Positions 1 to 49,482 are shown, counted from the stretch's first letter. The stretch: DNA of 64,000 nt from Sphingobacterium sp. (GCF_039596235.1 NZ_JBCNKE010000008.1:125946-189945), one strand, 5' to 3'. Translations and numbers: made by a program. Notes: a model not told the origin generated them from the letters alone.

Positions 1-1460
1 GTATTGTCGTTATTCCGTAAAGCCGATAATAATTCCGCATGAGTTGGCCGGGCTAGTAATAGCACTGGATCTTTTTTTGGCATATCATAGCCTGTCAAGA
101 CCACATGGGCGTTAATACCGCCAAAGCCAAAAGCATTTACTGCGGCCACTTTTGGGAGACCTGTCTTTGACCAGCTTTTTGCTTCATGTACAGGAGCAAA
201 TCGTGTTGTTTGCATGTCGGCGGTCGGGTTTTCACAATACAGCGTTGGTGGTAATGTATCATGGTATAGGGCCAGGCAGGTTTTTATCAGTCCCGCGATT
301 CCTGCTGCCGGCATGGCATGACCTATATTGGATTTGACCGAACCGATTCCAGCCACTGGGGCTGCTTCGTCTTTACCGAAAAATTGTGAGAGGGTCTCCA
401 ATTCAGTTTTATCCCCTAATGGTGTCCCTGTACCGTGAGCTTCCAGGTAACCGATCTGTTTTTCATCCAGTTCAGCATTGATCCAGGCGTGTTGTAGCGC
501 TCTTAATTGTCCTTTCACAGATGGACTCATAACGCTGGCGCCATGGCCATCGCTGCTCACCCCCACCCCTTTGATGATCGCATAGATTTTATCCTGGTCA
601 CGCACAGCATCTTCGAGTCGCTTTAATACAATAAAACCACAGCCTTCACCAATGAGTAAGCCATCGGCATCCATGCTGAAAGGTTTGATTTGCTGTTTGC
701 GCGACAAGGCTCCTAATTGTGTAAAAATGCTCCAAAAGGCAGCATTTTGTCCCGTATGTACTCCACCTGCAATCATGATGTCACTACGGCCACGCTGCAG
801 TTCCTGTACTGCATGGTCTACAGCGATCAGGGCGCTGGCACAAGCAGCATCTACAGTAAAGGCCACACCACCAAGATTGAAGCGGTTGGCCACAAGCGAA
901 GCCACAAGATTAGGGATTAAGCCCATAGCCGTATCAGCAGCAAAGCGCCCCTTGCGTTCCTGGAATGCTTGTTTTACCTTTTCGATATCAGCAGCTGGCA
1001 CCTGCGGTAAAAGTTCCTGTAAAAGGGAGGAAATCTGTTCGCCAGTACGTACGATTTCTATGGCACGGGTAGCCCCCGGGCCAGTATAATTTCCTTTCCC
1101 GATCACAATTCCTGCTTTTTCCAGTGACAGCTGTTTTTGAAATACGCCGGCATCTTCCAGAGCTTTCTGTACGAGATCAAGCGTTAACAGGTGATCGGGC
1201 TCGGTTCCCTCAACGGCAAGTGGTAAAATGCCAAATGCCGTTGGATCGAACACATAGTCCTGAATAAACCCACCACGTTTGCAATAAAAGCGATCCACGG
1301 TTCCGGGACCATCACTAAAATGGATCGGGTCAATGCGATCGGCTGGAGCAAATTCAGTGGAATCGACCTTATTAATGATATTTTGCCAAAACATATCAGC
1401 ATCTTGGGCTCCCGGAAAGACACAAGATAAACCAACGATGGCAACATCTGTTTTCTTCAT
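1..1460 (-). CDS. Type I PKS/FAS subunit 2, N-terminal KS domain (partial, runs off left edge); PfaBC/ArsD-like
   Basis: Not in the ORF track because there is no stop in the window. Manual translation from ATG 1460 gives MKKTDVAIVGLSCVFPGAQDADMFWQNI..., with KS motifs VDAACASAL, EAHGTGT, KSNIGHAMPAAG and NAFGFGGINAHVV. Starts 19 bp after the 2324-aa gene on the same strand. Confidence 0.9.
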   Translation of the reverse strand, partial: MKKTDVAIVGLSCVFPGAQDADMFWQNIINKVDSTEFAPADRIDPIHFSDGPGTVDRFYCKRGGFIQDYVFDPTAFGILPLAVEGTEPDHLLTLDLVQKALEDAGVFQKQLSLEKAGIVIGKGNYTGPGATRAIEIVRTGEQISSLLQELLPQVPAADIEKVKQAFQERKGRFAADTAMGLIPNLVASLVANRFNLGGVAFTVDAACASALIAVDHAVQELQRGRSDIMIAGGVHTGQNAAFWSIFTQLGALSRKQQIKPFSMDADGLLIGEGCGFIVLKRLEDAVRDQDKIYAIIKGVGVSSDGHGASVMSPSVKGQLRALQHAWINAELDEKQIGYLEAHGTGTPLGDKTELETLSQFFGKDEAAPVAGIGSVKSNIGHAMPAAGIAGLIKTCLALYHDTLPPTLYCENPTADMQTTRFAPVHEAKSWSKTGLPKVAAVNAFGFGGINAHVVLTGYDMPKKDPVLLLARPTHAELLSALRNNDN

Positions 1461-1479
1461 AATCAATAGCTATGACGGT

Positions 1480-4400
1480 TTACCAATTGTTGCCTGACAT
1501 AATTAATACTTGGCTTTCCGTACCATATCTGATCTCATTAAGGAAAATTTCCTTCCCTTCTTCCAAAGGAATAAGGGAGATACCTCGGCGTTCGTATTCC
1601 GTCTCCAGTGTCTGCGAAACCATTCCGGCACCTTTCCACGGCCCCCAGTTGATCGAAATAACTTTTCCTTTCAGTCGCTTATTCAATACATTGGCATAAT
1701 CATCCAATACGCTGTTTGCTGCGGCATAATCTGTCTGGCCCTTGTTGCCATAAACAGATGCTATACTGGAGAATAAAACGACAAATTGGCAATCCGAACG
1801 TAATTGTTCCGCCAATACACGTAAGGGTTTTACTTTGGTGTCAAAGACGCGTCCGAAAGAACTGGTTGTTTTCTGTTTGAAGAGTTTATCTTCCAGCAGG
1901 CCGGCACCATGGATCACACCATCAAGCTGTCCAAACTGTTCATAAATCTGACGGAGCAGGGTTGTTAATGCAGCCTCATCACAGAGATCCAGTGATTCAT
2001 AAATGACGGTGTTGCCTAAACGTTCCATATCGCGGATAGTCCGTAGGATCTGATTGTTTTTATAGATATGGAGGGTCTCTTTCTCAATTTGTGCTGGTGC
2101 ATGGAATAGTCCTGATTGAATAAGGTGCGCCCTGATCTGCTCCTTGGAGGTCATTGTTTCCAGCTCTTTCGGGATCGGGGTATCTTTCCTTGGATCTGCC
2201 GATCTGCCTACAAGGATGTAGGTACAAGGGTAGGAGGCTGACATATGTTTTACCAACTCGGCGGTAATCCCTTGTCCACCGCCAAGTACAAGGACAACAG
2301 ATTTTTCATCCAATTGGATGTGCACTTCTTCGCTGCCTGTAGAAAGTGGCGAAGGTATGATATCGACCGTATGCCGCTGATCATTTTTGTAGATAACCTC
2401 TACGGTTTTATCAGTCGTCAAGATCTCTTTTAGTGCAATTTCAGCAATTTGATCTGTTTCCTGTGGTGTGCTTAGACTGATCAATCGACAGTTGGTCTGC
2501 TCAAACTCACGGGCCAGACTTTTAAACAGGCCTGGGTACCCCTGATAGTGGCGCAATGCATGTGTATCATTTGTTTTTTCCACATGCGCGGGGATATCTG
2601 AAATTAAATAGACCCATTTGACCCGGTCCAGATCCATCTTTTTGATCAGGTCAACCTGGTCGATAATATTATGTTTGATGGTTGCTGAATAGGTATCTGT
2701 AATGATCAGCCCATCGAAGACGGCGAGATCCTGTTCTGGATTGACCAATTCGGCGATGGCACCATGTTTTTCGAGCATGGTTTTGATGGCCAAGGTATGT
2801 TGTCCATGATCTGGAGCAATGGCAAAACGTTTGCCCTGTAAAATTTCTGTTTCTTGTGCTGAGGCTGCATCTGCTGGTGTCAGGTCAAAACGAAGTCTGG
2901 ACAAGAGCCTCTGCTCAGGAGCTGTTTCACTAACTTCACTGATCCAGGAAGCAAGACCGTTAAGGGTTTTAATCGCTGCTAAGGTTTCCATCAGATCTTC
3001 GGCATGTTCGAGATCCTCCCCAAAACCAATTTTGGTCTTCAGTTCAGCAATGATTTCCATCCGTTTGATCGAGTCTATGCTCAAATCCGCTTCCAGGTCC
3101 AAATCCAATCCTAACATTTCTTTCGGATAACCGGTTTTTTCACTGACGATATCCAATATTGCTGTTTGTAATTCCGCAAGGGAGAGCGCAGACTGATTTG
3201 CCGTTGCAGATGTCGATACTGCTATTTGACCATTTGGCGTGGACAATGCTGTTGGATCACTGAACTCCGTTAACCAGGAAACCAGACCATTTAAAGTTTT
3301 GATGGCAGCTAATTGTTCCATGATTGTGTCTTCGTTTGTCTGATCGAATTTCAGTGTTTCGAGCTCGGTGCGCAGTGTTCCTATAATTTCGACCCGTTTG
3401 ATTGAATCGATGCTGAGATCAGCTTCCAGATCCAAGTCCAAACCCAGCATTTCATGTGGATAGCCAGTCTTGTCGCTTACCACCTGCAACAATAAAGTTT
3501 TGATGTCTTTAGTTTTTACAGCTGTTGTGACAGTAGAATTTTCGTTAAGAGCCGGTTGAACGGGAATGTGGGGGGGCTGATCAGCGGTAACATTTGGTGA
3601 AGGAGTCGAATAAACCGGCGTTGGGGGTACTTGTGGGTTTTGCCCCAAAAAGGAAAGCATAACATCACGTTGCGCCTGGATCAGCATTTTCATGCTGTTT
3701 AAATATTCTTGGAGCATACGCTCAGCAGAAGGTTGTGCTTCTGTCGTTGCAGCTATAGGGTTGTTAAGGTTACTCATTTTGATGGGGCTTATGATGGGCA
3801 ATGCACCATTGACAGGTAAAGATCCGTTGGTTGGATGTGCAGCCTGTCCGTTGACACGCCAGATCGTAGGCTTTTTCTTATATAAATTTGGTTGATCTAG
3901 CTGGATTGGTTGAACCTGACGGCCTTCAAAAAGTTTATCAATCGAAAAATTGCGACCTGTTCCCAAATATTGCGCAAGCATACAGAGGAGATGCGTCAAT
4001 TTGTTACGGTTGCTATCTTCTACATATAAGGTTAAGTGATCTTGCTCTAAACAAGATTTGGTCAGGCCGGTCAGTACTTTACCAGGCCCTACTTCGATAA
4101 ATATCCGTGCGCCATCTGCATACATGGCCTGGAGTTCCTCTACAAAGCGGACAGGTTGAACCAAATGTTCCGTCAATCTTGCTTTTATTTCAAAAGCTGA
4201 AGTAGGATATAAGCTTGTTGTAGTGTTTGACCAAACTGGTAGTCGCATTTCTTGGAAAGGAACATCCTTTAACACATTGGCGTAAAGTTCCTTTGACTTA
4301 GCGACTAAAGGGCTATGGAAAGCACAGGCCACTTCCAGTTTTTTAGCGGAGACTCGTTCCTGTTTTAATAGTTCCATAAGTTTCCCGATAGCTGCTGTGC

Positions 4401-7400
4401 TGCCGGCGACAACACATTGCGTCGGTGAATTGTAGTTTACGGGATAAACACCTTCCACACGATTGAGGAGTGCCTTCAACTGTTCCGCATTTGCGTTAAC
4501 AGCAACCATGGTGCCGGGATCGCCATTTTCGACCGAATCCAGGATGGATTGAGCCCGCCTGCTGCTCAGTTCGACTAATCGATCTTCATCAAACACACCA
4601 GCGAAACATAATGCTGGTAGTTCACCATAGCTGTGCCCCGCCAGCATATCCGGGACGATACCGAGTGAATGGAGGAATTTGGCCAAAGCCAGGTCAACAA
4701 TACCCAAAAGTGGTTGTGCCAGATGTGTATCTTTAATGGTTTCTTTTTGTTGTTTTAAAGAGTCAGCATCAAAAGTAGTTGAGGGAAAAAGCACTTTTTC
4801 CAGTTCAGGATACTGCGCGATAAGCTTTCGCATTTCGGGGAATATCACAAAGAGATCGCGAGCCATATTGATACGCTGACTTCCTTGTCCTGGAAATAAG
4901 AACGCGGTTTTCCCTTCTCGTCTATTGACAATAAAGGTGTCTTTGCTTTCAATACCGGATAACACCAGTTCAATTTTCATCATCAGGTCTTCCGCTGTAT
5001 CGGCAACGATGCTGAGCTGTATTGTTTTTTCAGATGCAATAGCTAAACTATACGCGATATTTTTTAGCGGGACGCTATCATTAATATCTAAAAGTGCTTT
5101 TACCTGGCTCAATTGTCCCTTAGCCTCGTCGTAGCTGTCACCACGGAACACAAATAATTCCGAAGGCCAGGATTGTAAGGTTATAGTGTTATCTTCTTGT
5201 GGGTGATTCGCAATAACAGCATGGAAATTCGTTCCGCCAAAACCAAAGGCGCTAATGCCGGCATAGCGTCTTTTTTCTCCCCATAAACCAGTTTCGGCAT
5301 GGAAAGCGAAAGGACTGGTTAGTTCGTTGTAATAGGCATTAGGTTGTCGGAGGTGAAGTGTCGGTGGTTTTACACCATGAAATACCGCTAAAGAAGCTTT
5401 GATAAGGCCCGCCAATCCTGCAGCACATTTTGTGTGGCCGATCTGGGTTTTGACCGAACCTAAATGCGTTTGTGCCGGTAAGGCACCTGAGCGGCTGAAT
5501 AAATTGGTCAGTGCGCTTAGTTCTGTTTTATCACCAACAACTGTTCCAGTGCCATGGGCTTCAACCAGTCCCACGGCTGCTGCACTGATGCCTGCTTGAT
5601 TATAAGCGCGTTCCAGTGCGCGTACCTGACCGATTTTTCGGGGAGCAGTAAGGCCCAGGGCTTTACCATCACTTGAGCCGCCCACACCTTTGATGACAGA
5701 GTAGATGCGGTCGCCATCGTGTATAGCATCTTCATAGCGTTTGAGCACCAATATCGCTATCCCCTCGCCAAGGGCAATACCGTCGGCATCCCGATCAAAT
5801 GTAGCACATCGTCCTTTACGTGAGAGCGCATGTGTGCTTGAGAACATCAGATAATCGTTAATTCCATTATGCAGATCTGCTCCACCGGCAAGCACCATAT
5901 CTGATTTGCCCAGAATAAGTTCTTGACAAGCGAGATCAATCGCTGCGAGTGATGAGGCACAGGCAGCATCTACTGTGAAATTTCGACCGCCAAGATCCAG
6001 TCTGTTTGTGATTCGGCCAGCAATAACATTGGCTAGAATGCCGGGGAAAGAATCTTCGGTGGTATGCGGGAATGCTTCTTTCACTTCCTCATGGAGTTCT
6101 CCGAATACTTGTTTGTAATATCCTCTAAAGCTATAACTGTTGGCAAGGTCGTTACCACCTTCCGCGCCGATGATTACGGAAATATTTTCACGATTGATTT
6201 GTTTTTCGCCATAACCGGCATCTTCCATGGCACGCTTGGCTACCAATAATGTCAACAACTGTGTTGGTTCAATAGCTGCGAGTGACTGCGGTGGAATCCC
6301 GAAAGCCAAGGGATCGAAATCAATTTTCGGAATAAAGCCACCCCATTTGGAATGGGAGACATCCGGACCGTCCGAGTCGGGTTTGTAGTATAATTCTTTA
6401 TTCCAGCGTTCGTCCGGAACTTCGGTTACACTGTCTTTCCCAAGAATAATATTGCGCCAAAATTCTTCAAGATTTTTGGCTCCCGGAAATATACACTCCA
6501 TCCCGACAATAGCAACATCTAACGGTTTTTCACTGGATAAAGGTTGTTCCGGTAATATTGCTTCCTGAATATATAGTTTATTGTCGATGCCTACATGTTG
6601 ATGGAGAGAGTCTAGGGAGATTACCTGATCATGCATGGTTGCGATCTGACCGATCATATACATGCCCAGTTCCAGTTGTTCACTTGTGGGAATATTGATC
6701 AGTTTATCACCTTGGCGTTCTACGCCTTTTGCTGCGATACGAAGGCGACCAACATTTAATTTTTCAAGTTTTTCCCAGATTGCCTTCTTATCGACACCAG
6801 CGGCTAATAATTTGGCTTTTTCTAGGTTGAAGTGTTGCGCAAAAGCCGTATTTAAGCAACGGGTTTCATGTCCTGGCGCTGTCTCCAGGAGAACAGTATC
6901 TTTGGCTTGCATCGCCTGTCTTTGAAACTCTTCCTGAATTGCACCTGTACTGACAGCTTCCTGTGTATATAGATATGCCGTTCCCATCAATACACCTATT
7001 TTTACACCCCGAGCTGCCAAGGGAGCTGCCATAATGGAAACAAACGCTGTAGAGAATGCATTGTGGATGCCACCGGCAAAAAATATGCTGATCTCTTCCG
7101 GATGATCTTCTTTTAAAATGCGTTCAATTTGTTTTTCCCAAAGCACAGTACTTGAAAGAGGACCTACATGGCCACCGCATTCGCGGCCTTCGAAAATGAA
7201 ATTTTTTGCGCCCTCCTTTAGAAACATGTCGAGCAGGGTAGGAGATGGTACGTGTAGAAATGTTGTTATGCCTGCTTTTTCAAATACCTTAGCCTGTGCT
7301 GGTCGACCACCGGCAATCAGTACAACGGGCGGTTTAGCTTCCAGGATATAGGCCGTTTGTTCTTCACGCAATTCCTGTGGCGCAAAGCCTAGGATACCTA

Positions 7401-8454
7401 CGCCCCAAGTTTTTTTGTCAACGAGTTGTTTGGTTTCCATAACCAAGTTTTTGGCTTGTTCACCACCCAGCAGGGATAGGGCAACAAATGGGAGCGCTCC
7501 GGCTTCCGCTACGGCATTTGCAAAAGCAGGGACATCGCTGACACGGGTCATGGGCCCCTGTGCGATTGGATAACGCAGGCCAAGTTGTTGTGCCAGTACA
7601 TTTCCACCGTCTATTGGTTGCAGCGCTTTTGCCTGTTTTAAATGACCGTACATGGCTTCCTTAAATCCGAAAACAAGTTTTTTTAATGTCCTAAAATCTT
7701 CGTAAAGATCGATGGCCAAAGAGATATCTTGCCCCATAGGTATATAACTAATTGCTGGATCCAGGCCAGTGAAATAGGATCGGAGTTCGGCTGTATCAAC
7801 CTGATCCGATAAGGCCGGCGAGTTTGGACGTACCAGTACACGGTGGTTGGCGATGATTTTAGTTTCAGTTCCATTTAGCTTTCCACAGAGCGTTTTGAAG
7901 TCCCGTGTAAATGAGCTTTCGGGAAACAGCGCGAGCTGACTGTCCAATACAATTCCAGTAGCACCAAGTGCTTTTGCCGCAGCCGCTGTATGAAGACCTA
8001 TGCCGCCCTGTATCCAGACAGGGATGGACTGAATTTTATTGATAATCCGTTGGAAGAGTACAAAGGTGGATTCATATCCAACGAGTCCGCCAGCTTCATT
8101 CCCTTTTATGATAATTCCTGCAGCTCCTTGTTGCTCTGCTTGCAAGGCCTGTTCAAGGCTACAAACCTGATACACAATAGACGAGTGTTGAGCCGTGGGT
8201 ACAGGGCTGCCAAAAGGAAGAATGATGACGCTTACTTTCGCTGGGATTTGAAGGGATAGTAATTTATCATTCGGAAAATAAATTCCATAATTAAATAGAG
8301 CAGTCTGATCAAGTTGATTCAGTGCTTCCTGAGCATTGGCTAAGTCGTGCCCCAAACTTAATACGGGAAATACACCCGCTTGATGGAGTTTGGGCATCAG
8401 ATTGGCGTCAGGCTTTTCAAAAGGCGTTAATCCAATAATGGTTAAATTTTTCAT
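1480..8454 (-). CDS. Iterative type I FAS/PKS, 2324 aa: two FabK/nitronate-monooxygenase-like (ER) domains, KS, AT, 2 ACP, KR
   Basis: ER-like motifs YPIAQGPMTRVS, EGRECGGHVG and FAGGI; KS DAACASSL/HGTGT/GHTKCAAG; AT GHSYG and AFHS; two ACPs LEADLSIDSIKR; KR GGGQGIT, VIHGAG, YAAAN. Confidence 0.93.
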   Translation of the reverse strand: MKNLTIIGLTPFEKPDANLMPKLHQAGVFPVLSLGHDLANAQEALNQLDQTALFNYGIYFPNDKLLSLQIPAKVSVIILPFGSPVPTAQHSSIVYQVCSLEQALQAEQQGAAGIIIKGNEAGGLVGYESTFVLFQRIINKIQSIPVWIQGGIGLHTAAAAKALGATGIVLDSQLALFPESSFTRDFKTLCGKLNGTETKIIANHRVLVRPNSPALSDQVDTAELRSYFTGLDPAISYIPMGQDISLAIDLYEDFRTLKKLVFGFKEAMYGHLKQAKALQPIDGGNVLAQQLGLRYPIAQGPMTRVSDVPAFANAVAEAGALPFVALSLLGGEQAKNLVMETKQLVDKKTWGVGILGFAPQELREEQTAYILEAKPPVVLIAGGRPAQAKVFEKAGITTFLHVPSPTLLDMFLKEGAKNFIFEGRECGGHVGPLSSTVLWEKQIERILKEDHPEEISIFFAGGIHNAFSTAFVSIMAAPLAARGVKIGVLMGTAYLYTQEAVSTGAIQEEFQRQAMQAKDTVLLETAPGHETRCLNTAFAQHFNLEKAKLLAAGVDKKAIWEKLEKLNVGRLRIAAKGVERQGDKLINIPTSEQLELGMYMIGQIATMHDQVISLDSLHQHVGIDNKLYIQEAILPEQPLSSEKPLDVAIVGMECIFPGAKNLEEFWRNIILGKDSVTEVPDERWNKELYYKPDSDGPDVSHSKWGGFIPKIDFDPLAFGIPPQSLAAIEPTQLLTLLVAKRAMEDAGYGEKQINRENISVIIGAEGGNDLANSYSFRGYYKQVFGELHEEVKEAFPHTTEDSFPGILANVIAGRITNRLDLGGRNFTVDAACASSLAAIDLACQELILGKSDMVLAGGADLHNGINDYLMFSSTHALSRKGRCATFDRDADGIALGEGIAILVLKRYEDAIHDGDRIYSVIKGVGGSSDGKALGLTAPRKIGQVRALERAYNQAGISAAAVGLVEAHGTGTVVGDKTELSALTNLFSRSGALPAQTHLGSVKTQIGHTKCAAGLAGLIKASLAVFHGVKPPTLHLRQPNAYYNELTSPFAFHAETGLWGEKRRYAGISAFGFGGTNFHAVIANHPQEDNTITLQSWPSELFVFRGDSYDEAKGQLSQVKALLDINDSVPLKNIAYSLAIASEKTIQLSIVADTAEDLMMKIELVLSGIESKDTFIVNRREGKTAFLFPGQGSQRINMARDLFVIFPEMRKLIAQYPELEKVLFPSTTFDADSLKQQKETIKDTHLAQPLLGIVDLALAKFLHSLGIVPDMLAGHSYGELPALCFAGVFDEDRLVELSSRRAQSILDSVENGDPGTMVAVNANAEQLKALLNRVEGVYPVNYNSPTQCVVAGSTAAIGKLMELLKQERVSAKKLEVACAFHSPLVAKSKELYANVLKDVPFQEMRLPVWSNTTTSLYPTSAFEIKARLTEHLVQPVRFVEELQAMYADGARIFIEVGPGKVLTGLTKSCLEQDHLTLYVEDSNRNKLTHLLCMLAQYLGTGRNFSIDKLFEGRQVQPIQLDQPNLYKKKPTIWRVNGQAAHPTNGSLPVNGALPIISPIKMSNLNNPIAATTEAQPSAERMLQEYLNSMKMLIQAQRDVMLSFLGQNPQVPPTPVYSTPSPNVTADQPPHIPVQPALNENSTVTTAVKTKDIKTLLLQVVSDKTGYPHEMLGLDLDLEADLSIDSIKRVEIIGTLRTELETLKFDQTNEDTIMEQLAAIKTLNGLVSWLTEFSDPTALSTPNGQIAVSTSATANQSALSLAELQTAILDIVSEKTGYPKEMLGLDLDLEADLSIDSIKRMEIIAELKTKIGFGEDLEHAEDLMETLAAIKTLNGLASWISEVSETAPEQRLLSRLRFDLTPADAASAQETEILQGKRFAIAPDHGQHTLAIKTMLEKHGAIAELVNPEQDLAVFDGLIITDTYSATIKHNIIDQVDLIKKMDLDRVKWVYLISDIPAHVEKTNDTHALRHYQGYPGLFKSLAREFEQTNCRLISLSTPQETDQIAEIALKEILTTDKTVEVIYKNDQRHTVDIIPSPLSTGSEEVHIQLDEKSVVLVLGGGQGITAELVKHMSASYPCTYILVGRSADPRKDTPIPKELETMTSKEQIRAHLIQSGLFHAPAQIEKETLHIYKNNQILRTIRDMERLGNTVIYESLDLCDEAALTTLLRQIYEQFGQLDGVIHGAGLLEDKLFKQKTTSSFGRVFDTKVKPLRVLAEQLRSDCQFVVLFSSIASVYGNKGQTDYAAANSVLDDYANVLNKRLKGKVISINWGPWKGAGMVSQTLETEYERRGISLIPLEEGKEIFLNEIRYGTESQVLIMSGNNW

Positions 8455-9000
8455 GCATTGATGATCTTGAAAATATAATAGCAGGAGATCCCATAACAGA
8501 AATCAAAACCGTAGTGGTATTGACGGGGGGGCTGTTATGTTGGAATAAAAGTAATTAATTTCTATTATATTTTTAACAATAAAGGTAATTTGATAATGAT
8601 TTTTTAACAAAAAAGGAATAAATGCCTGAGTATTATTAACCATGAGGCTACAAATTTGTTTAAATTCAGTCGTAGACCGTTTTTTGGATCTATGATTCAA
8701 AAAAAAATAAATATTCATTTTATGTCTGAATAACTAAATGGATAATTTTATCTCAGAAGGCTTTTTTAATTGTGTTTTATCGCAATAGGTTATCATACTT
8801 TATTTTTACATTATTTGTATAACCTGCTTTTGAACCATCTGTATAATGGATAAGATTAGCGGCACGTATGGTAACCTACTTCGCTTATTGGTTTATATTT
8901 AACTTTTTAGTTAAATATGAATAGCAGCTAATATCTTTCAATAGATCAGGTGATTAGTTTTATTTTTGCATTTTTACTTGCAAAGAATGCTTGATAAGCG

Positions 9001-9008
9001 TATATTTG
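9001..9008 (+). promoter_or_regulatory. Bacteroidota housekeeping promoter -7 element (TATATTTG) of tRNA-Pro copy 1
   Basis: Matches TAnnTTTG, 30 bp upstream of the tRNA; TTG at 8978-8980 at a 20-nt spacing. Confidence 0.75.
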
Positions 9009-9037
9009 TGCCACACAAAAACAAGGTGATACCTTTT

Positions 9038-9111
9038 CGGGGTGTAGCGTAGCCCGGTATCGCGCCACATTTGGGATGTGGAGGTCGTAGGTTCGAATCC
9101 TGCCACCCCGA
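9038..9111 (+). tRNA. tRNA-Pro(TGG), copy 1
   Basis: Cloverleaf: acceptor CGGGGTG/CACCCCG, anticodon arm CCACA-TTTGGGA-TGTGG, T-arm GTAGG-TTCGAAT-CCTGC; CCA not encoded. Confidence 0.97.
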
Positions 9112-9252
9112 CTAAAAAAGCTCTAACAAAAGTTAGGGCTTTTTTTGTTTCTAGGCAGAATGAGAACCTACGACCTAATAAGGAGCTGCGAGGTTCGATC
9201 CGGAGAGGGTTCTATGTCGTGTGGGCATTGTGTGGCTAATTTAATCCTGCCA
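9112..9252 (+). repeat. tRNA-linked repeat unit, degenerate copy A
   Basis: Matches the units at 11539-11684 and 11685-11790: TTTCTAGG..ATGAGAACCTAC..AGGAGCTGCGAGGTTCGA, ending AATCCTGCCA. Confidence 0.85.
9114..9147 (+). terminator. Intrinsic terminator after tRNA-Pro copy 1
   Basis: AAAAAAGCTCTAAC-aaaa-GTTAGGGCTTTTTTT. Confidence 0.85.
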
Positions 9253-9657
9253 TTCTAGCTAAAATCATTTATTATCAGGTTTTTTTGAATATGTTTCGGA
9301 CATTTTTTTTTCAATATTAAGATAGATAAGTTTAGCTTAATGGGGGCTAATGTTACAAGATATAAACTCGTGTCTCCCCGTTTGGTGTTTGCTTTTGCTA
9401 ACGAATTATCAAAATAAGCTGTACATGAACATTGAATTGACATGGCGGGTTAAGCTAAATTAAAAAATTTACACATTTAGTCGCTAAATGTATTTCACAT
9501 TCCTAACAAAATTTGTAATTTACTTCTTTGAAATTGCACGGTTAAGTTTCCGCTAAATTGAACTTTTCATCTAATTTATCCGATACTTCGCCAATGCATT
9601 CTTGGTCGTAACCATGCTATGAGGCCAGCCGGATAAAATTTTTCTAATTGAACTAAA

Positions 9658-10551
9658 ATGAATATTAATTTTTTCTTAAACTTAGTTATTCTGTTGTTAT
9701 TGTTGATTTTACCGGAAATGGTCTTTTCTCAATCAACTGATTTTACCATCCAAGAAGTTAAGTTTAAAAGCCAAGGTGTTACTCTTGCGGGGTCAATTTT
9801 AATGCCTAAAAATCCATTTGCGGCAGTTGTGATTGTTCACGGGTCTGACCCGGTAAAAAGAGAAATCGAGTTTGCAACACGTCTTGCTAAAGAAGGTGTT
9901 GCTGTATTGACCTATGATAAACGTGGAGTTGGACAATCTGAAGGTATATATGTTGGACCGTCTGTTGGTACGAATAATATTGACACAACAAACCTTAATT
10001 TATTATCTAACGATGCAAATGAAGCAGTAAAAACATTTAGAACCTATTTGAAAGAGAAAAAGGTGCCAATTGGTTTAGTCGGGTTTAGTCAGGCAGGATG
10101 GATAATTCCGATTACTGCAAGTAAGAACCAACAGATTGAATTTATGGTATTATTTAGTTGTCCTACGATAACAACTGTAGAACAACTCCGATTTCAGTTT
10201 TATACGAATGGCAATAATAACTTTTGGGAACATCATACAGATGCCGATGCCCGTGAGCATATTAAAAATGACCCAGACAAATATCAATTTGTAGCGACTG
10301 ACCCAAAAATTTCTTTGAATATGCTTTCAGTTCCTGGACTTTGGCTTTTTGGAGAGAAGGATATACAAATTCCCGTAAAGTTGTGTATAGAACAATTAAA
10401 CTCATTTAAAGTACAAGGCAAACCTTTTGAATACACGTTATTTCCAACATTAGGACATGATACTTCTTCGGAAAATATTTCAGAACCCTTCGATATTTCA
10501 GTTCAATGGATAAAGCAGAAAACGTTGAACATGAAACTGTCTAAAAAATGA
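9658..10551 (+). CDS. Secreted alpha/beta hydrolase (peptidase S9/S15-like)
   Basis: Signal peptide, VHGSDP, YDKRGVG, nucleophile GFSQAG, GEKDIQIP, LGH. Confidence 0.85.
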   Translation: MNINFFLNLVILLLLLILPEMVFSQSTDFTIQEVKFKSQGVTLAGSILMPKNPFAAVVIVHGSDPVKREIEFATRLAKEGVAVLTYDKRGVGQSEGIYVGPSVGTNNIDTTNLNLLSNDANEAVKTFRTYLKEKKVPIGLVGFSQAGWIIPITASKNQQIEFMVLFSCPTITTVEQLRFQFYTNGNNNFWEHHTDADAREHIKNDPDKYQFVATDPKISLNMLSVPGLWLFGEKDIQIPVKLCIEQLNSFKVQGKPFEYTLFPTLGHDTSSENISEPFDISVQWIKQKTLNMKLSKK

Positions 10552-10827: not shown

Positions 10828-11262
10828 ATGAGCACATTAAAAATGACTTTTAAGAATTGGATGCTGCTATTGCTTGGAGTAATCGCGGTGGGAATGACGT
10901 CTTGCAGTAAGGAAACCGTTGATAGCATCGGAAGAGATGCCGCATTGAATATAATCCGTACAGGTAATTGGGAACGTTGGACTAAAACTGTTGAAGGTAA
11001 TAGTGTTGCTGAGCTAAATGTGACCCGTGAAATGATGGAGCAGGGAGAGACACTTAATTTTGATAAAGACGGTGCTTGGCATAAGAAAAAAGATAATACT
11101 GCAGTTTCTTACGACTACAGTATGCCTGATGCAAAAACGATGATTTTTGATGGTGTTGAATATAAAATACAAGAAAATATTGTTTCTACAGTCTCCAAGC
11201 TAACATTAGTTAATCAGCAAGGGGCAATTAAAACAACGATGGTAATCAAGAGAAGTTGGTAA
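10828..11262 (+). CDS. Lipoprotein, hypothetical
   Basis: SPII signal with lipobox MTSC followed by SKET; beta-rich mature part; long hairpin at about 11274-11317 after the stop. Confidence 0.75.
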   Translation: MSTLKMTFKNWMLLLLGVIAVGMTSCSKETVDSIGRDAALNIIRTGNWERWTKTVEGNSVAELNVTREMMEQGETLNFDKDGAWHKKKDNTAVSYDYSMPDAKTMIFDGVEYKIQENIVSTVSKLTLVNQQGAIKTTMVIKRSW

Positions 11263-11403: not shown

Positions 11404-11434
11404 TTTGAAAACAAAATATTTTAGTGTACTTTTG
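11404..11434 (+). promoter_or_regulatory. Bacteroidota -33/-7 promoter of tRNA-Pro copy 2
   Basis: TTTG (11404-11407), 19-nt spacer, TACTTTTG (11427-11434). Confidence 0.85.
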
Positions 11435-11463
11435 TGCCACACAAAACAAAGGTGATACCTTTT

Positions 11464-11537
11464 CGGGGTGTAGCGTAGCCCGGTATCGCGCCACATTTGG
11501 GATGTGGAGGTCGTAGGTTCGAATCCTGCCACCCCGA
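11464..11537 (+). tRNA. tRNA-Pro(TGG), copy 2, identical to copy 1
   Basis: Same 74-nt sequence as 9038-9111. Confidence 0.97.
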
Positions 11538-11538
11538 C

Positions 11539-11790
11539 AAAAAAGCTCGACGAAAGTCGGGCTTTTTTTGTTTCTAGGCAGGATGAGAACCTAGGGCCTA
11601 TTCAGGAGCTGCGAGGTTCGACCCAAAGGGGGCTCAGGGCAGAGTCTGAGGCATGCGCGGCTGAGCCAATCCTACCACCCCGACAATAAAGCTCGACGAA
11701 AGTCGGGCTTTTTTTGTTTCTAGGTATGATGAGAACCTACGACCTATTAAGGAGCTGTGAGGTTCGATCCGAAGGAGGCTCAGTAAGCCG
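11539..11790 (+). repeat. Tandem tRNA-linked repeat units (146-bp period), each starting with a terminator hairpin
   Basis: The tRNA 3' end AATCCTGCCACCCCGAC (11522-11538) recurs as AATCCTACCACCCCGAC (11668-11684); the hairpin GCTCGAC-GAAA-GTCGGGC plus T tract occurs twice. Confidence 0.92.
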
Positions 11791-12100: not shown

Positions 12101-13261
12101 ATGACCTCAATCTGGCATATCATTTATATCGGTGGTGTCTTTATGGCCCTGTTTCTTTTTATTCTGTTAATCAGCAAACCAAAGAAAAGTGCTGCGGATA
12201 AGATTTTGAGCACCTGGCTTTTCTTCGCTTTTTTTGATCTGATTTTAGTTGGCCTGTACGGATCCGGAGAAATTCTAAGTATGCCGAAGCTGTTTGGCTG
12301 GGAAATGCCTTTTCCCTATTTACATGGGCCTTTCTTGTATCTGTATATTTTGTTTGCTACTGGACAGCAGCGGCATACATGGCGTTATCTGCTCCATTTC
12401 CTTCCTGCTGTGATTGTATCAGTTATACTGGCTTTTGTGTTACCGGACGCGGTCGCAGAATATAAAGGGAAATATTACATGTTGCGGGAATATGATACTT
12501 TCATTTGGATTATGATGTTGGGTTTTATGATCTCGGGGATCGTATATATAATCCTTTCACTAATGTTGTTGCGTCGGCATAGAAAGAATATTGTCGGACA
12601 ATTTTCCAATACGGAAAAAATTACCCTCAACTGGATGCGCTATCTTATTTTCGGTATTAGTGCAATCTGGGTCGTCGTCATTATCGAGGGGAGCCCAGAG
12701 CTATTTTTTGTGGTCATCACGTTGTTCATTTTTTTCTTCGGTTATTTTGGTGTACAGCAGGTAGGAATTTTTTCCCATGCGTCATCGGTACATGAGGTGG
12801 TACCGCTGCGGGAACTGGAATCAGTGGATGAAATACAGTATGACGAGGCCGCCCAAGAGTCTGCTGACAAAGTCAAATATGAAAAGACGAGGCTGGAGGA
12901 ATCTGAAGCTTCGCTCATTCATGGAAAATTGGATGCCCTGATGAAGGAGCAAAAATGCTATCAGGATCCCGAATTAACTTTGGGAGACTTAGCCAAGATA
13001 CTAGAGGTGCATCCCGTTATACTTTCACAGGTCATCAATTCCAGAGAACAAAAGTCCTTTTATGATTATGTCAATACCTATAGGGTAGAGACCTTTAAGG
13101 AATTGTTGTTACGACCTGACAGCAGGCAATATACGATGCTGTCATTGGCCTTCGAGTGCGGCTTCAACTCGAAGACCAGTTTCAATCGAAACTTTAAGAA
13201 GATTACACAGATGTCCCCCAGCGCCTATGCAAAAGGGATCGATGTTCAATTGAAAGCATAA
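12101..13261 (+). CDS. Membrane-anchored AraC-family regulator 1
   Basis: About 7 hydrophobic N-terminal segments; C-terminal AraC HTH (LTLGDLAK, LSQVIN, LAFECGFNSKTSFNRNFKK). Confidence 0.92.
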   Translation: MTSIWHIIYIGGVFMALFLFILLISKPKKSAADKILSTWLFFAFFDLILVGLYGSGEILSMPKLFGWEMPFPYLHGPFLYLYILFATGQQRHTWRYLLHFLPAVIVSVILAFVLPDAVAEYKGKYYMLREYDTFIWIMMLGFMISGIVYIILSLMLLRRHRKNIVGQFSNTEKITLNWMRYLIFGISAIWVVVIIEGSPELFFVVITLFIFFFGYFGVQQVGIFSHASSVHEVVPLRELESVDEIQYDEAAQESADKVKYEKTRLEESEASLIHGKLDALMKEQKCYQDPELTLGDLAKILEVHPVILSQVINSREQKSFYDYVNTYRVETFKELLLRPDSRQYTMLSLAFECGFNSKTSFNRNFKKITQMSPSAYAKGIDVQLKA

Positions 13262-13350
13262 AAGCTGGACAAGGTCAAAAAGATTAACAATATGCTAGCA
13301 GCTGAGCTTTCAATTGTGCTTGTTAGCCTTATTTTTTTAGCTATCTGACT

Positions 13351-14508
13351 ATGATATTAGCTTGGCAGATTATTTATATCGGGGGACTGTCTATTGCGCT
13401 CTTTTTGTGCATTATGATTGTCAGTAAACGTAAAAAGACAATGGCTGATCGGATTTTATGTGCATGGTTCCTTTTCGCATGTATCCATTTGGCTTTTATA
13501 GGCTGGTACGCTTCGGGCTTAGCTCTCAAAAATCCGCAGTTCATTTTGTGGCAGTTGCCATTTCCATTTTTACATGGGCCTTTCCTTTATTTATACATTT
13601 TATTTTTGAGCGCACAGCAGCGTTACCGATGGCGTTATTTAATCCATTTTATCCCAGCGGTTGTCGTCCTTATGATATTAACTTTTGTGCTTCCAGATGT
13701 ATTTGTAAGGACGCAGAGCGAAATAAAGATATTGCCGCAATTTGAAGCTTTTTTCCAAATCCTAGTCGTAGCAATCATACTTTCTGGTCTGACCTACGTT
13801 GTCCTGTCGCTTCGGCTGCTGCATGCGCATCGCCGGAACATAATTGGTCAGCTGTCGAATACCGACCGCATTACACTAAACTGGATCCGGTATCTAATCT
13901 TGGGAATGAGTGCAATATGGGTAGTTGTCATTTTCTCCGATTCGCCACAGACATTATACACCGTTGTTGCCCTTTTTATTTTTTTTATCGGTTATTTTGG
14001 AATCCGTCAGGTAGGTGTCTTCTCAAATTTATCCGCAGCACATGAAATATACGCTCCAAGCTTACTAAAGCAAAGCTGGCAAGACGTCGATCAAGCAATA
14101 CCAGCTGAAAAATTGAAATATGAAAAAACGAGACTGAATGAATCAGTTGCTTCGCTCATCCATGGGAAACTGAACGTTCTGATGAAGGAGCAAAAATGTT
14201 ATCAGGATCCAGAGCTAACTTTGGGTGATTTAGCTAAAAGATTGGAACTGCATCCGGTCATACTGTCGCAGGTAATTAACTCAAAGGAAGGGAAATCCTT
14301 TTACGATTATGTGAATAGCCATCGGGTGGAGGCCTTTAAGGAACTGTTGTTGGATCCCAAAAGTCAGCAGTTTACTTTGCTGTCGCTAGCCTTTGACTGT
14401 GGTTTTAATTCGAAGACCAGCTTCAACCGGAATTTTAAGAAGATTACCCATATGTCTCCCAGTGCCTATGCAAAATCACGCCAGATCACGTTTAAATCAC
14501 TAGATTGA
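13351..14508 (+). CDS. Membrane-anchored AraC-family regulator 2 (paralog of regulator 1)
   Basis: Same architecture; HTH nearly identical to regulator 1. Confidence 0.92.
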   Translation: MILAWQIIYIGGLSIALFLCIMIVSKRKKTMADRILCAWFLFACIHLAFIGWYASGLALKNPQFILWQLPFPFLHGPFLYLYILFLSAQQRYRWRYLIHFIPAVVVLMILTFVLPDVFVRTQSEIKILPQFEAFFQILVVAIILSGLTYVVLSLRLLHAHRRNIIGQLSNTDRITLNWIRYLILGMSAIWVVVIFSDSPQTLYTVVALFIFFIGYFGIRQVGVFSNLSAAHEIYAPSLLKQSWQDVDQAIPAEKLKYEKTRLNESVASLIHGKLNVLMKEQKCYQDPELTLGDLAKRLELHPVILSQVINSKEGKSFYDYVNSHRVEAFKELLLDPKSQQFTLLSLAFDCGFNSKTSFNRNFKKITHMSPSAYAKSRQITFKSLD

Positions 14509-35716: not shown

Positions 35717-38023
35717 CTAGAATGGATAACCGATAGCCAGATTGAACATCAGGTTATCTTTGCGCCATTGGGAACTGCCAAAATCGATGTCCTTAAATAC
35801 CCAACGTTCCCCCTTAGGCAAATAGGGGATACGGAATGGAATCGAAAAATCTGTTCGGATGATCAGGAAGGTAAAGTCGAAGCGCAAGCCGGCTCCGCCA
35901 CCTACAGCGAGTTCATTCAAGAAGTTTTTGCTGAATTTAGCACCAGGTTTGTTCACATCTTCTCGTTGTAACCACACATTACCAGCATCGATAAATGCTG
36001 CCCAATGAACAAAACCAGCCAGTTTCGAACGATACTCTGTGTTTAGCTCCAACTTGATATCACCAGTCTGATCCGCATAAAATAGTCCGTTGCTCAATTT
36101 CTCTGGAGCAACTGTTCCAGGACCTATTGCACGGGCACCAAAAGCACGGATACTGTTTGGCCCACCAACATAATATTGTTTCAAATAAGGTAGGGACCGC
36201 GAGTTACCATAGGAATAACTCAATCCGAGACTGACCCGCGATGCCAATTGCGAATTCTCGGATAATTTCAAATAATGTCTACCATCACCGCTTAATTTAA
36301 TATACTGCGAGAAATAGGCATCGAATAATTTGAAAGTCTTGCCTTTATTAAAATCGGCTCCTTTGATCAAACCAAGGATATTCCCCGAAAGATCCAAATT
36401 GCCTTTGAAATAGAACGTATTCTTCAAATGTTGCTTCATCGTATTCTGGAACGTGAAGTTATAGTTGGGGCCGATTGTAAACTGAGGGTCGATCGCATGC
36501 CGCAACGCTGGAATGGTATCCATCTGCTTTTGGTAATTTTCCGAAATGCCTTTAGGCTGCACATAGGTAATTTCCAACAAAGCAAGGTCATGTTGTTTTT
36601 CTTCAGACTCTTGCCAGATATAACCATAATCCAATGCAATCGAATTCAAGGTATAGGCTTTACGACGGTTTAAGAATTCATAACGTCCTTTGACATAGGT
36701 TTTGGGAATAAAACGACGGGAAGGATCAATGCTTCCGAAAGGACTAAGGATACGTGGAAAAGTCAATGTCGCTTCAGCACCATAGCGGTAATAACTGGAA
36801 TTTAGATCCGCATTTCCTCCAGTCTGGGTCTCATAACCGCCAAAGACATTAAAGCTCAATTGCTCCGCACCCTTAAATGCATTACGCAGTGTCCAGTTGA
36901 CATTGACCTCCGTACCGTTGTACACAGAAGCCATTTTTCCCAGTAGCTCTACCCGCAAGGATTTTTTTGGCAGTGGCGTTAGGTAATAATAGACATCAAG
37001 CGCATTTGGCACTTCTTTGCTATCCACAAAGTTGTTCTTTACAAATTTCCAGCTGTTCAGATTGACCAAATGGCTGATCGTCTGGTTGTGCGCTGTACGA
37101 TTATATGTATCTCCGGGATGGAAAAAGATATGTTTTGCGATAACGGGTTTGCGAAAGGTATGTCTCCGGTCTATAAAATAGTAACTGCTATCAAACAACT
37201 CTGCATTTCGGGTAGACCGTTGGTAACCTGAACTTGTTTCTGTATAATTCGGAAAAATATAGATCTTATTGATTTTGGAAGGAACCTTCGCTTGTGCTGG
37301 CGTTTCCTTTTTTACCGTTACATACATGTCGACCCTGTTGTTTCGGTGTGAACTGTCGACTTGTACAAGGATATAATCAGGACTAAAATAGTAATACCCT
37401 TTGTTTTTAAGATCATTGTCAATGCGATCTCGCTCATTTAATATGACGTCCAAGCTGTAATTTTTCCCGACCTGAAGCAGACTTTTGTCGGATGAAGAAC
37501 GTATATCCCGACCCAGTTGTGTTGTGCTGTCAACGTCGAACTTGACCGATCTGATCCGGTAGATCAGGTTCGGTTTGGCCGTGTAGTTTATTGTTGCTTT
37601 CTTTTCCTCAACCAATGTATCTGATTTTACCTCGGCATTAAAAAAACCAATGTTTTCCATGCGGTTACGCAACAGATTCTCGTTGTATTCGCGGTTGACA
37701 TCACTTAGCAATACAGGTTCTTCACCAATTTTCTTGAAGAATTTTTTGATGATATTTTTATTGGCCGAATCACCGGCCATATTATTAAAATATAACTTAA
37801 ACGGTACACCTGCCAGACGCTTATTGGGTTTAGGCATCAATGATGATTGGAGATAGGTTGCTAGTTTTTCCTTATTCTCCTTGGAAATCGTATCTGAATC
37901 TATAATGACATTACCCTTGACGTATAGGCTTTCACCTTCTTTCAAATTCTTGGTGGAAGAACAGGACGTGATAATCGTCGTTAACGTTACTATTGCAATG
38001 GCAAATTTCAGTTTAGCCCACAT
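35717..38023 (-). CDS. BamA/TamA (Omp85) family lipoprotein, TamL-like
   Basis: Lipobox ITSC, POTRA-like region, YYVGGPNSIRAF, FIDAGNVW, terminal LAIGYPF; start may be 38023-38047. Confidence 0.9.
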   Translation of the reverse strand: MWAKLKFAIAIVTLTTIITSCSSTKNLKEGESLYVKGNVIIDSDTISKENKEKLATYLQSSLMPKPNKRLAGVPFKLYFNNMAGDSANKNIIKKFFKKIGEEPVLLSDVNREYNENLLRNRMENIGFFNAEVKSDTLVEEKKATINYTAKPNLIYRIRSVKFDVDSTTQLGRDIRSSSDKSLLQVGKNYSLDVILNERDRIDNDLKNKGYYYFSPDYILVQVDSSHRNNRVDMYVTVKKETPAQAKVPSKINKIYIFPNYTETSSGYQRSTRNAELFDSSYYFIDRRHTFRKPVIAKHIFFHPGDTYNRTAHNQTISHLVNLNSWKFVKNNFVDSKEVPNALDVYYYLTPLPKKSLRVELLGKMASVYNGTEVNVNWTLRNAFKGAEQLSFNVFGGYETQTGGNADLNSSYYRYGAEATLTFPRILSPFGSIDPSRRFIPKTYVKGRYEFLNRRKAYTLNSIALDYGYIWQESEEKQHDLALLEITYVQPKGISENYQKQMDTIPALRHAIDPQFTIGPNYNFTFQNTMKQHLKNTFYFKGNLDLSGNILGLIKGADFNKGKTFKLFDAYFSQYIKLSGDGRHYLKLSENSQLASRVSLGLSYSYGNSRSLPYLKQYYVGGPNSIRAFGARAIGPGTVAPEKLSNGLFYADQTGDIKLELNTEYRSKLAGFVHWAAFIDAGNVWLQREDVNKPGAKFSKNFLNELAVGGGAGLRFDFTFLIIRTDFSIPFRIPYLPKGERWVFKDIDFGSSQWRKDNLMFNLAIGYPF

Positions 38024-49343: not shown

Positions 49344-49482
49344 CCTGATAAAATACCTCTTGTATAAGAAGCGAAAATGTTCGAGGAATATAAGGGGCAG
49401 ATGACTTTTAAATTTCCCTAGGTAATAGGAAGACCTTAAAAAAGGGGGAAAATGAACTGATGAATAAATAAACTGTTTACAT

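Follow-up and report, generated by a model that had tools for sequence, protein, structure and literature searches.

A Type N secondary lipid synthase of Sphingobacterium sp. heads an eight-gene operon that may produce a long-chain glycolipid

The stretch of Sphingobacterium sp. DNA analysed here (GCF_039596235.1, NZ_JBCNKE010000008.1:125946-189945; 64,000 nucleotides, hereafter the window) opened with two adjacent genes of a multidomain lipid synthase, both on the minus strand. Gene 1 was complete and encoded 2324 amino acids (aa), whereas gene 2 ran off the left edge of the window. An initial annotation had read the pair as an iterative megasynthase for an uncharacterised lipid. The features of the locus were as follows.

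8455..9037, no strand assigned: A+T-rich upstream region of 583 nt, presumed promoter and operon boundary
1480..8454, minus strand: gene 1, 2324 aa (open reading frame (ORF), Pfam, NCBIfam and motifs)
7600..8454, minus strand: ER', partial FabK/NMO-like barrel, aa 1-285 (profile match)
6619..7599, minus strand: enoyl reductase (ER), FabK-type flavin mononucleotide enoyl-acyl carrier protein reductase, aa 286-612 (TIGR03151, PDB FabK and Foldseek)
5350..6519, minus strand: ketosynthase (KS), aa 646-1035 (Pfam and motifs with Cys832, His967 and His1007)
4042..4902, minus strand: malonyl-type acyltransferase (AT, or MAT), aa 1185-1471 (Pfam, FabD model at 191 bits, GHSYGE and AFHS)
2935..3507, minus strand: two tandem acyl carrier protein (ACP) domains, aa about 1650-1840 (two Pfam PP-binding matches and the motif LEADLSIDSIKR)
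1633..2298, minus strand: ketoreductase (KR), aa 2053-2274 (Pfam, GGGQGITA Rossmann motif, Tyr2243 and LED)
1461..1479, minus strand: 19-nt spacer from the gene 1 stop to the gene 2 start
1..1460, minus strand: first 486 aa of gene 2, continuing off the left edge (ORF and Pfam; KS with Cys207, His342 and His381)

Gene 1 is a PfaA-like secondary lipid synthase subunit with the domain order ER'-ER-KS-AT(MAT)-ACP-ACP-KR. The intact KS triad and AT serine reported initially were borne out by the ORF, Pfam and a motif scan: the KS carried Cys832 (DAACAS), His967 (EAHGTGT) and His1007 (KTQIGH), and the AT combined GHSYGE (Ser1275) with AFHS, a malonyl-type signature. Both ACPs contained an identical LEADLSIDSIKR motif (Ser1684 and Ser1795) of the Pfa-like form LxxDLxIDSIKR, in keeping with the earlier comparison to synthases of polyunsaturated fatty acids (PUFA). 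In the KR, YAAAN held Tyr2243, and LED at the position of the B-type LDD made the domain B-type-like. Pfam placed neither a dehydratase (DH) nor a thioesterase (TE) domain within the gene, again as first described. The two ER domains of that description held only in part, since the second FabK-like domain was full and the first was partial. Pfam NMO matched at aa 39-181 (weakly) and aa 289-555, and the second domain was also matched by TIGR03151 (142 bits) and, over aa 285-568, by PDB FabK 7l00. The first segment (aa 39-193) aligned only to profile positions 81-232, the second half of the FabK/NMO profile. It read EAGGLVG where the second domain read RECGGHVG, so that Leu replaced the histidine of the GGH stretch, which we take to be the catalytic-histidine loop of FabK. 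Because this histidine is absent, ER' is probably non-catalytic, with a structural role. An AlphaFold2 (AF2) model of ER'-ER contained two beta/alpha repeats, the first with a beta/alpha pattern at aa 5-171, and Foldseek matched it to FabK (E 3e-9) and to small TIM barrels; with a mean pLDDT of 53, this low-confidence model counts as weak support for two beta/alpha barrels. The stop codon of gene 1 (TAA) lay at 1482-1480 and was followed by an ATG at 1460. No strict Bacteroidetes -7 motif (TAnnTTTG) lay upstream of gene 1, where an Rfam scan returned only tRNAs and no regulatory RNA.

That ATG starts gene 2, and the second gene with an intact KS of its own, proposed to begin 19 nt downstream, was indeed present with its Cys-His-His triad. 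The frameshift in gene 2 that the initial annotation had named as evidence against itself was absent from the 486 aa in the window, and the frame stayed open to 905 aa on Logan contig L001, which is identical to the window and adds an AT with GHSLGE. In three relatives (L002, L004 and L007) the full-length protein comprised about 1414 aa with the order KS-AT-DH-phosphopantetheinyl transferase (PPTase). The roughly 300 residues between AT and PPTase were conserved across genera, and the polyketide synthase (PKS)-DH motifs PYLIDH...P, HMFHGPxYQGI and LLDNAGQ in this mid region were invariant. Pfam PS-DH matched gene 2 in 15/15 sampled members, under the gathering score, and distant homologues from Actinobacteria and other phyla carried precomputed PS-DH and ACPS annotations. 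In an AF2 model of a Chryseobacterium homologue (pLDDT >90 over residues 160-641), the DH matched those of MlnB, a MAS-like PKS, CurF/J/K and PpsC (E 2e-13 to 1e-10, TMt 0.65-0.72), and the C-terminal part matched Sfp (TMt 0.70). As modelled, gene 2 holds a PKS-type double-hotdog DH and an Sfp-type PPTase. Between them, the two genes therefore provide a full KS/AT/ACP/KR/DH/ER cycle, a complete iterative set like that of a type I fatty acid synthase (FAS), with two active KS domains, a second AT and its own PPTase. DH and TE are missing from gene 1, but DH, PPTase, ACP and TE are encoded outside the window. The second KS is not universal in the synthase family, because the gene 2 homologues of three further loci (L085, L087 and L089) lacked it and comprised AT-DH-PPTase only. 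In the last of these, a metagenome locus (L089, 12918-22835), the related ER-KS-AT-ACP-KR/AT-DH-PPTase pair sat beside three opposite-strand genes, which encode a canonical PfaC-like protein (KS-KS-AT-FabA), a PfaD-like protein and a methyltransferase; the pair was not followed by an ACP, hydrolase or glycosyltransferase (GT), a different wiring of the same synthase.

The genomic context of the pair was read from Sphingobacterium relatives 88-94% identical in gene 1, the closest found, which agrees with the Sphingobacterium-like origin first assigned to the locus. With S. detergens (L007) as the reference, genes 1 and 2 were followed by six further genes.

ACP, 99 aa: standalone, with a DSI motif; the most conserved gene, 78-100% identical across genera
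Hydrolase (TE in the gene order), 260 aa: alpha/beta-hydrolase with GYSFG, matching Pfam Thioesterase and Abhydrolase_1
GT, 801 aa: two fused family 1 glycosyltransferase (GT1) modules; TIGR01426 (MGT family) 366 bits vs a cut-off of 260
C1 and C2, 423 and 417 aa: standalone condensation-family paralogues with HHCLCDG and PHCVCDG
x180, 180 aa: small membrane protein with at least three hydrophobic segments and no family match

The order g1-g2-ACP-TE-GT-C1-C2-x180 held in almost every one of 80 genome loci, which came from five genera (Sphingobacterium, Chryseobacterium, Flavobacterium, Pedobacter and Mucilaginibacter); the exceptions were cuts at contig ends and one locus without a detectable x180. 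Adjacent frames overlapped (start/stop overlap) or sat a few bases apart. The window holds the 5' part of an operon of eight translationally coupled genes, whose limits we place at gene 1 and x180 because the flanking genes vary between genera. The window sequence was present at 100% of sampled words in one plant-metagenome run, and an 11.2-kb contig from the same run continued from L001 at equal depth (13.4 vs 12.6) through the remainder of gene 2, every gene downstream of it and a TPR gene, as far as a tRNA-Pro. Since this equal-depth contig covers the downstream genes, the window's own strain almost certainly carries the whole operon. Outside these genera, the synthase was also followed by orthologues of the ACP, hydrolase and GT1 in three places, Nocardioides solisilvae and two metagenome contigs of unassigned origin. 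The N. solisilvae proteins were 32% (ACP), 29% (hydrolase) and 34% (GT) identical to those of the operon, and a WS/DGAT acyltransferase adjoined them; an unassigned metagenome-assembled contig with the synthase-ACP-hydrolase-GT1 core also held methyltransferases. On a Logan contig, two separate GTs matched the halves of the fused GT (56% and 51%). Individual genes departed from the pattern in three genomes: gene 1 was split into 1880 and 438 aa in one Mucilaginibacter (L045, 2952-9973) and C1 into 331 and 94 aa in one Pedobacter (L072, 17787-19063), either of which may be a frameshift or sequencing error, and Mucilaginibacter lappiensis (L042, 17800-21646) had three condensation-family paralogues, not two.

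Gene 1 passed the NCBIfam model of the PfaA subfamily (TIGR02813; 1054 bits vs a cut-off of 1010.1), whereas modular/mycobacterial PKS models scored far under their cut-offs (700 vs 1740 and 457 vs 2400), so that the initial placement among Pfa-like rather than modular synthases stands. The single iterative domain set and these low PKS model scores speak against a modular cis-AT type I PKS. The FabK model alone matched the ER region, the PfaD family model not being among the matches at E<=0.001. In Table S1 of Shulse & Allen (2011), Chryseobacterium gleum is entered as ER-KS-MAT-ACP2-KR / KS-AT-PPTase / ACP under 'Type N', a type that also includes Chitinophaga pinensis and whose product was uncharacterised. 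Judged by its domain order, the synthase studied here is of this type. Gene 1 joins an N-terminal ER to a PfaA-like KS-MAT-tandem ACP-KR, gene 2 has its KS in the window and KS-AT on L001, and the KS-AT-DH-PPTase protein and standalone ACP of the 88-94% identical relatives fit, with which the contig coverage from the strain's own sample agrees. Compared by the Table S1 listing, the three-gene core is identical to that of C. gleum ATCC 35910 (EFK33535/33534/33533), and Chryseobacterium homologues were 79-82% identical to the window's proteins. Chryseobacterium species also made up most of the 120 protein clusters among the matches listed. The type of this locus, initially taken as uncharacterised, had thus been catalogued in 2011, which makes the locus one more representative of an orphan family and not the first of a new kind. 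The 2011 table leaves the DH of gene 2 without annotation, and likewise the genes for the hydrolase, GT, C-proteins and membrane protein; what is added here is the complete eight-gene operon, the previously unannotated DH, the cross-phylum core and the evidence for horizontal transfer. The earlier statement that no product was assigned held in the literature searched, where we found none for Types M, N or O or for Bacteroidota hglE-KS clusters. A 2026 survey still termed the fused pfaDA / pfaBC-PPTase arrangement uncharacterised, and antiSMASH 7 returned 'hglE-KS, T1PKS, terpene' with no similar known cluster for the C. herbae region holding a homologous locus (L021), with comparable calls reported for S. 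thalpophilum and S. prati.

The Sphingobacterium copy of the operon did not group with those of its own family. Its gene 2 was about 81% identical to Chryseobacterium/Flavobacterium copies but only 66-68% identical to those of Pedobacter/Mucilaginibacter, which belong to the same family as Sphingobacterium, and in a neighbour-joining (NJ) tree it fell inside the Flavobacteriales clade with Flavobacterium sequences interspersed. The fused 801-aa GT was common to Sphingobacterium, Chryseobacterium and Flavobacterium, whereas Pedobacter and Mucilaginibacter had two separate GT genes. Two tRNA genes lay upstream of gene 1 in the window.

9038..9112, plus strand: tRNA-Pro(TGG), about 580 nt upstream of gene 1
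11464..11538, plus strand: second tRNA-Pro(TGG) module, beyond two variable genes

The two modules (8997-9264 and 11423-11783) were about 95% identical over 122 nt, and in each a terminator and a degenerate remnant of a tRNA 3' end (9243-9264 and 11668-11689) came after the tRNA. Between the copies were genes for a 297-aa hydrolase (9658-10551) and a 144-aa ORF (10828-11262), and the gene content of this interval differed in L002 and L004, a pattern suggestive of an integration hotspot. Four Sphingobacterium relatives had the operon and the TPR gene between two tRNA-Pro modules of the same orientation, which in S. detergens were 163-nt repeats with 97% identity at a distance of 21,456 bp; no tRNA was found in the scanned loci of other genera. 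Because gene 2 identity, NJ placement, the fused GT and the tRNA-Pro bracketing point the same way, it seems that Sphingobacterium received the operon by horizontal transfer from the Chryseobacterium/Flavobacterium lineage, with a tRNA-Pro hotspot as the entry site. GC content was discarded as evidence of transfer, the operon being 4-8 points above its flanks in every genus.

Overall, we lean slightly towards the view that the operon makes a specialised lipid, most likely a glycolipid, and that Sphingobacterium obtained its copy by transfer. A glycosylated lipid is predicted mainly because the linkage of synthase, ACP, hydrolase and GT1 crosses phyla. The product is most likely a saturated or hydroxylated long-chain glycolipid, not an alkylresorcinol or a PUFA. 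We postulate that the PPTase of gene 2 would activate the ACPs, and that repeated malonyl extension with full KR-DH-ER reduction would then give a long saturated or partly hydroxylated acyl chain. Such a chain is favoured over a cis-unsaturated PUFA because no FabA-type DH/isomerase (PF07977) and no chain length factor (CLF) was found in any locus, the gene 2 KS keeping its Cys-His-His. The chain would pass to, or be assisted by, the 99-aa ACP, and the alpha/beta-hydrolase would release it. The two GT1 (MGT-family) modules, whose PDB neighbours were YjiC, OleD and OleI, may add two sugars to a hydroxyl or carboxyl of the lipid, C1 and C2 may decorate the product, and x180 could aid its insertion or export.

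Two known pathways resemble this scheme in part. In rhamnolipid synthesis, the alpha/beta-hydrolase RhlA takes hydroxyacyl-ACP and the GT1 RhlB then glycosylates the free hydroxyl. The analogy is conceptual, as the acyl chains there come from FAS II and not from a dedicated megasynthase; RhlA was absent from the best 60 of the hydrolase's 118 PDB matches, the presence of an RhlA structure in the searched set being uncertain. The heterocyst glycolipid pathway (hglE/G/D/C/A/B and hglT) likewise leads from a Pfa-like synthase through a long hydroxylated chain to a glycosyltransferase, and antiSMASH puts homologues of the locus under its hglE-KS rule. The subunit layout differs, however, with two GT1 (MGT-family) modules and C-family proteins present here, and in contrast to the reductive release of Hgl no thioester-reductase domain or gene for alcohol formation was found in the operon.

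Several points weigh against the glycolipid reading and the transfer joined to it. The downstream genes of the window's own strain are known as contig coverage alone, not frame by frame. No diagnostic thioesterase family marks the hydrolase, a generic alpha/beta-hydrolase, and MGT-family GTs can also serve in self-resistance or detoxification. Chain length, sugar identity, acceptor group and the order of steps are inferred, and the closest solved relative of C1 and C2 is a dehydratase, which makes an acyltransferase role uncertain. As to transfer, the GC at third codon positions of gene 1 (0.41) was within the host range, so that composition gave no support for a recent event, and no integrase was seen.

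C1 and C2 are most likely ACP- or CoA-dependent O-acyltransferases, with AzeD-like dehydratases as the alternative. Both had intact motifs, HHxxxDG in C1 (HHCLCDG) and PHxxxDG in C2 (PHCVCDG), and Pfam and NCBIfam pointed to PapA5 likeness (PapA_C in C2, 42.7 bits vs a cut-off of 30). Like C1 and C2, AzeD and PapA5 are standalone C-fold proteins with (H/P)HxxxDG, but their identity to the operon proteins is low and their pathway contexts differ: AzeD acts on an alkaloid intermediate derived from a nonribosomal peptide synthetase, and PapA5 esterifies phthiocerol with PKS-bound acids. The PDB title of the AzeD entry 8S6L, 'phthiocerol/phthiodiolone dimycocerosyl transferase', is an automatic name, and annotation transfer from it would mislead. 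In the best-surviving rival, which we consider unlikely but give real weight, the same operon would use C1 and C2 as dehydratases to add an unsaturation or anhydro function to the hydroxylated lipid or its sugar. Their profile matched AzeD (PDB 8S6L) at E 1.5e-33 vs 2e-5 for PapA5 (PDB 1Q9J), and C2 has the PHxxxDG variant of AzeD, a standalone C-family protein of Pseudomonas aeruginosa experimentally shown by its authors to be a dehydratase. The same authors call the function of the other members of the standalone C-protein clade unknown. Identity to AzeD was about 25-30% on a rough alignment reading, C1 retains the canonical HHxxxDG, and the Nocardioides synthase is flanked by a WS/DGAT acyltransferase instead. 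We also put forward tentatively, at less than an even chance, that the operon makes a diglycosyl very-long-chain lipid, acylated or dehydrated, of a class so far undescribed and found in soil and plant Bacteroidota. If true, this would give a first product for synthases of the form ER-KS-MAT-ACP2-KR / KS-AT-DH-PPTase / ACP (Types M-O), which are spread over Bacteroidota, Actinobacteria, Cyanobacteria and Proteobacteria, and a first lipid substrate for standalone condensation proteins of the AzeD clade.

It is improbable, though less so than the two possibilities that follow, that the operon supplies a non-glycosylated very-long-chain (hydroxy) fatty acid for envelope lipids, the GTs and C-proteins being unrelated or detoxifying. 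MGT-family GTs often inactivate xenobiotics, which suits such a role, but the overlapping frames, the strict gene order across five genera and the GT1 that follows the synthase in other phyla argue for a joint pathway.

The ArsA/ArsD system of Azotobacter vinelandii (Type P), invoked in the initial annotation, hands C22-C26 acyl-ACP starters directly to type III PKSs for alkylresorcinols and alkylpyrones, and we regard the same function here as very doubtful. The likeness of the synthase itself was upheld. Table S1 of Shulse & Allen (2011) lists ArsA as ER-KS-MAT-ACP-KR, the PPTase is again in the partner protein, and both are iterative FAS-like synthases for saturated long chains; S. prati is moreover reported to have an arylpolyene-T3PKS region elsewhere in its genome. 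The likeness does not reach the product. Ars has one ACP and here there are two, and the two type III PKS genes (arsB/arsC) that lie between the Ars synthase genes have no counterpart: of the neighbours that had been suggested for inspection, AT, DH and PPTase in gene 2 and a glycosyltransferase gene were found in the relatives, but no type III PKS gene occurred in the window, nor did any of about 80 loci have one within or beside the operon. The analogy stops at the synthase because type III PKS is in no locus, and the conserved partners that follow are instead the ACP, hydrolase, GT1 modules and condensation-family proteins. Least credible of all is a PUFA synthase for membrane fatty acids of the eicosapentaenoic/docosahexaenoic acid type, since despite the shared KS-MAT-tandem-ACP-KR unit (the PfaA subfamily model was passed), the LxxDLxIDSIKR form of the tandem ACPs and a second KS on another subunit, the locus differs from PfaABCDE in having neither CLF nor PF07977, a gene 2 KS that keeps its Cys, a PKS-type double-hotdog DH, no PfaD family model among the matches at the threshold above, and a FabK-like ER and a PPTase fused to the synthase subunits.

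No product has been attached to the synthase core since its description in 2011, although the core is conserved in many Chryseobacterium, Pedobacter, Mucilaginibacter and Flavobacterium species and some Sphingobacterium species, all of them common rhizosphere, soil and host-associated bacteria. The operon reading provides a testable product class, a glycosylated long-chain lipid, and as a self-contained eight-gene unit with its own PPTase the operon is suited to heterologous expression. Identifying the product would reveal what a whole branch of Pfa-like synthases does, and the lipid could be a new envelope lipid or a biosurfactant relevant to surface colonisation. In three soil metatranscriptomes, short contigs of 90-95% identity tiled genes 1 and 2 at low depth and covered no neighbouring non-tRNA gene; since DNA carry-over is possible, they are weak evidence for transcription of the operon by close relatives in soil.

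The remaining window was ordinary chromosome, with genes for EF-G, RNase R, ValRS, SucA, photolyase and UbiD. Just past the second tRNA-Pro, 12101-14508 encoded two tandem paralogous AraC-family regulators (386 and 385 aa). Genes for Omp85/TamA-like (776 aa) and TamB-like (1761 aa) proteins overlapped in frame at 35717-43298, and at 47433-51408 two proteins encoded in tandem, each about 640 aa long, carried a Sulfatase-family domain at the C-terminus, while no family matched their N-terminal 270-280 aa.

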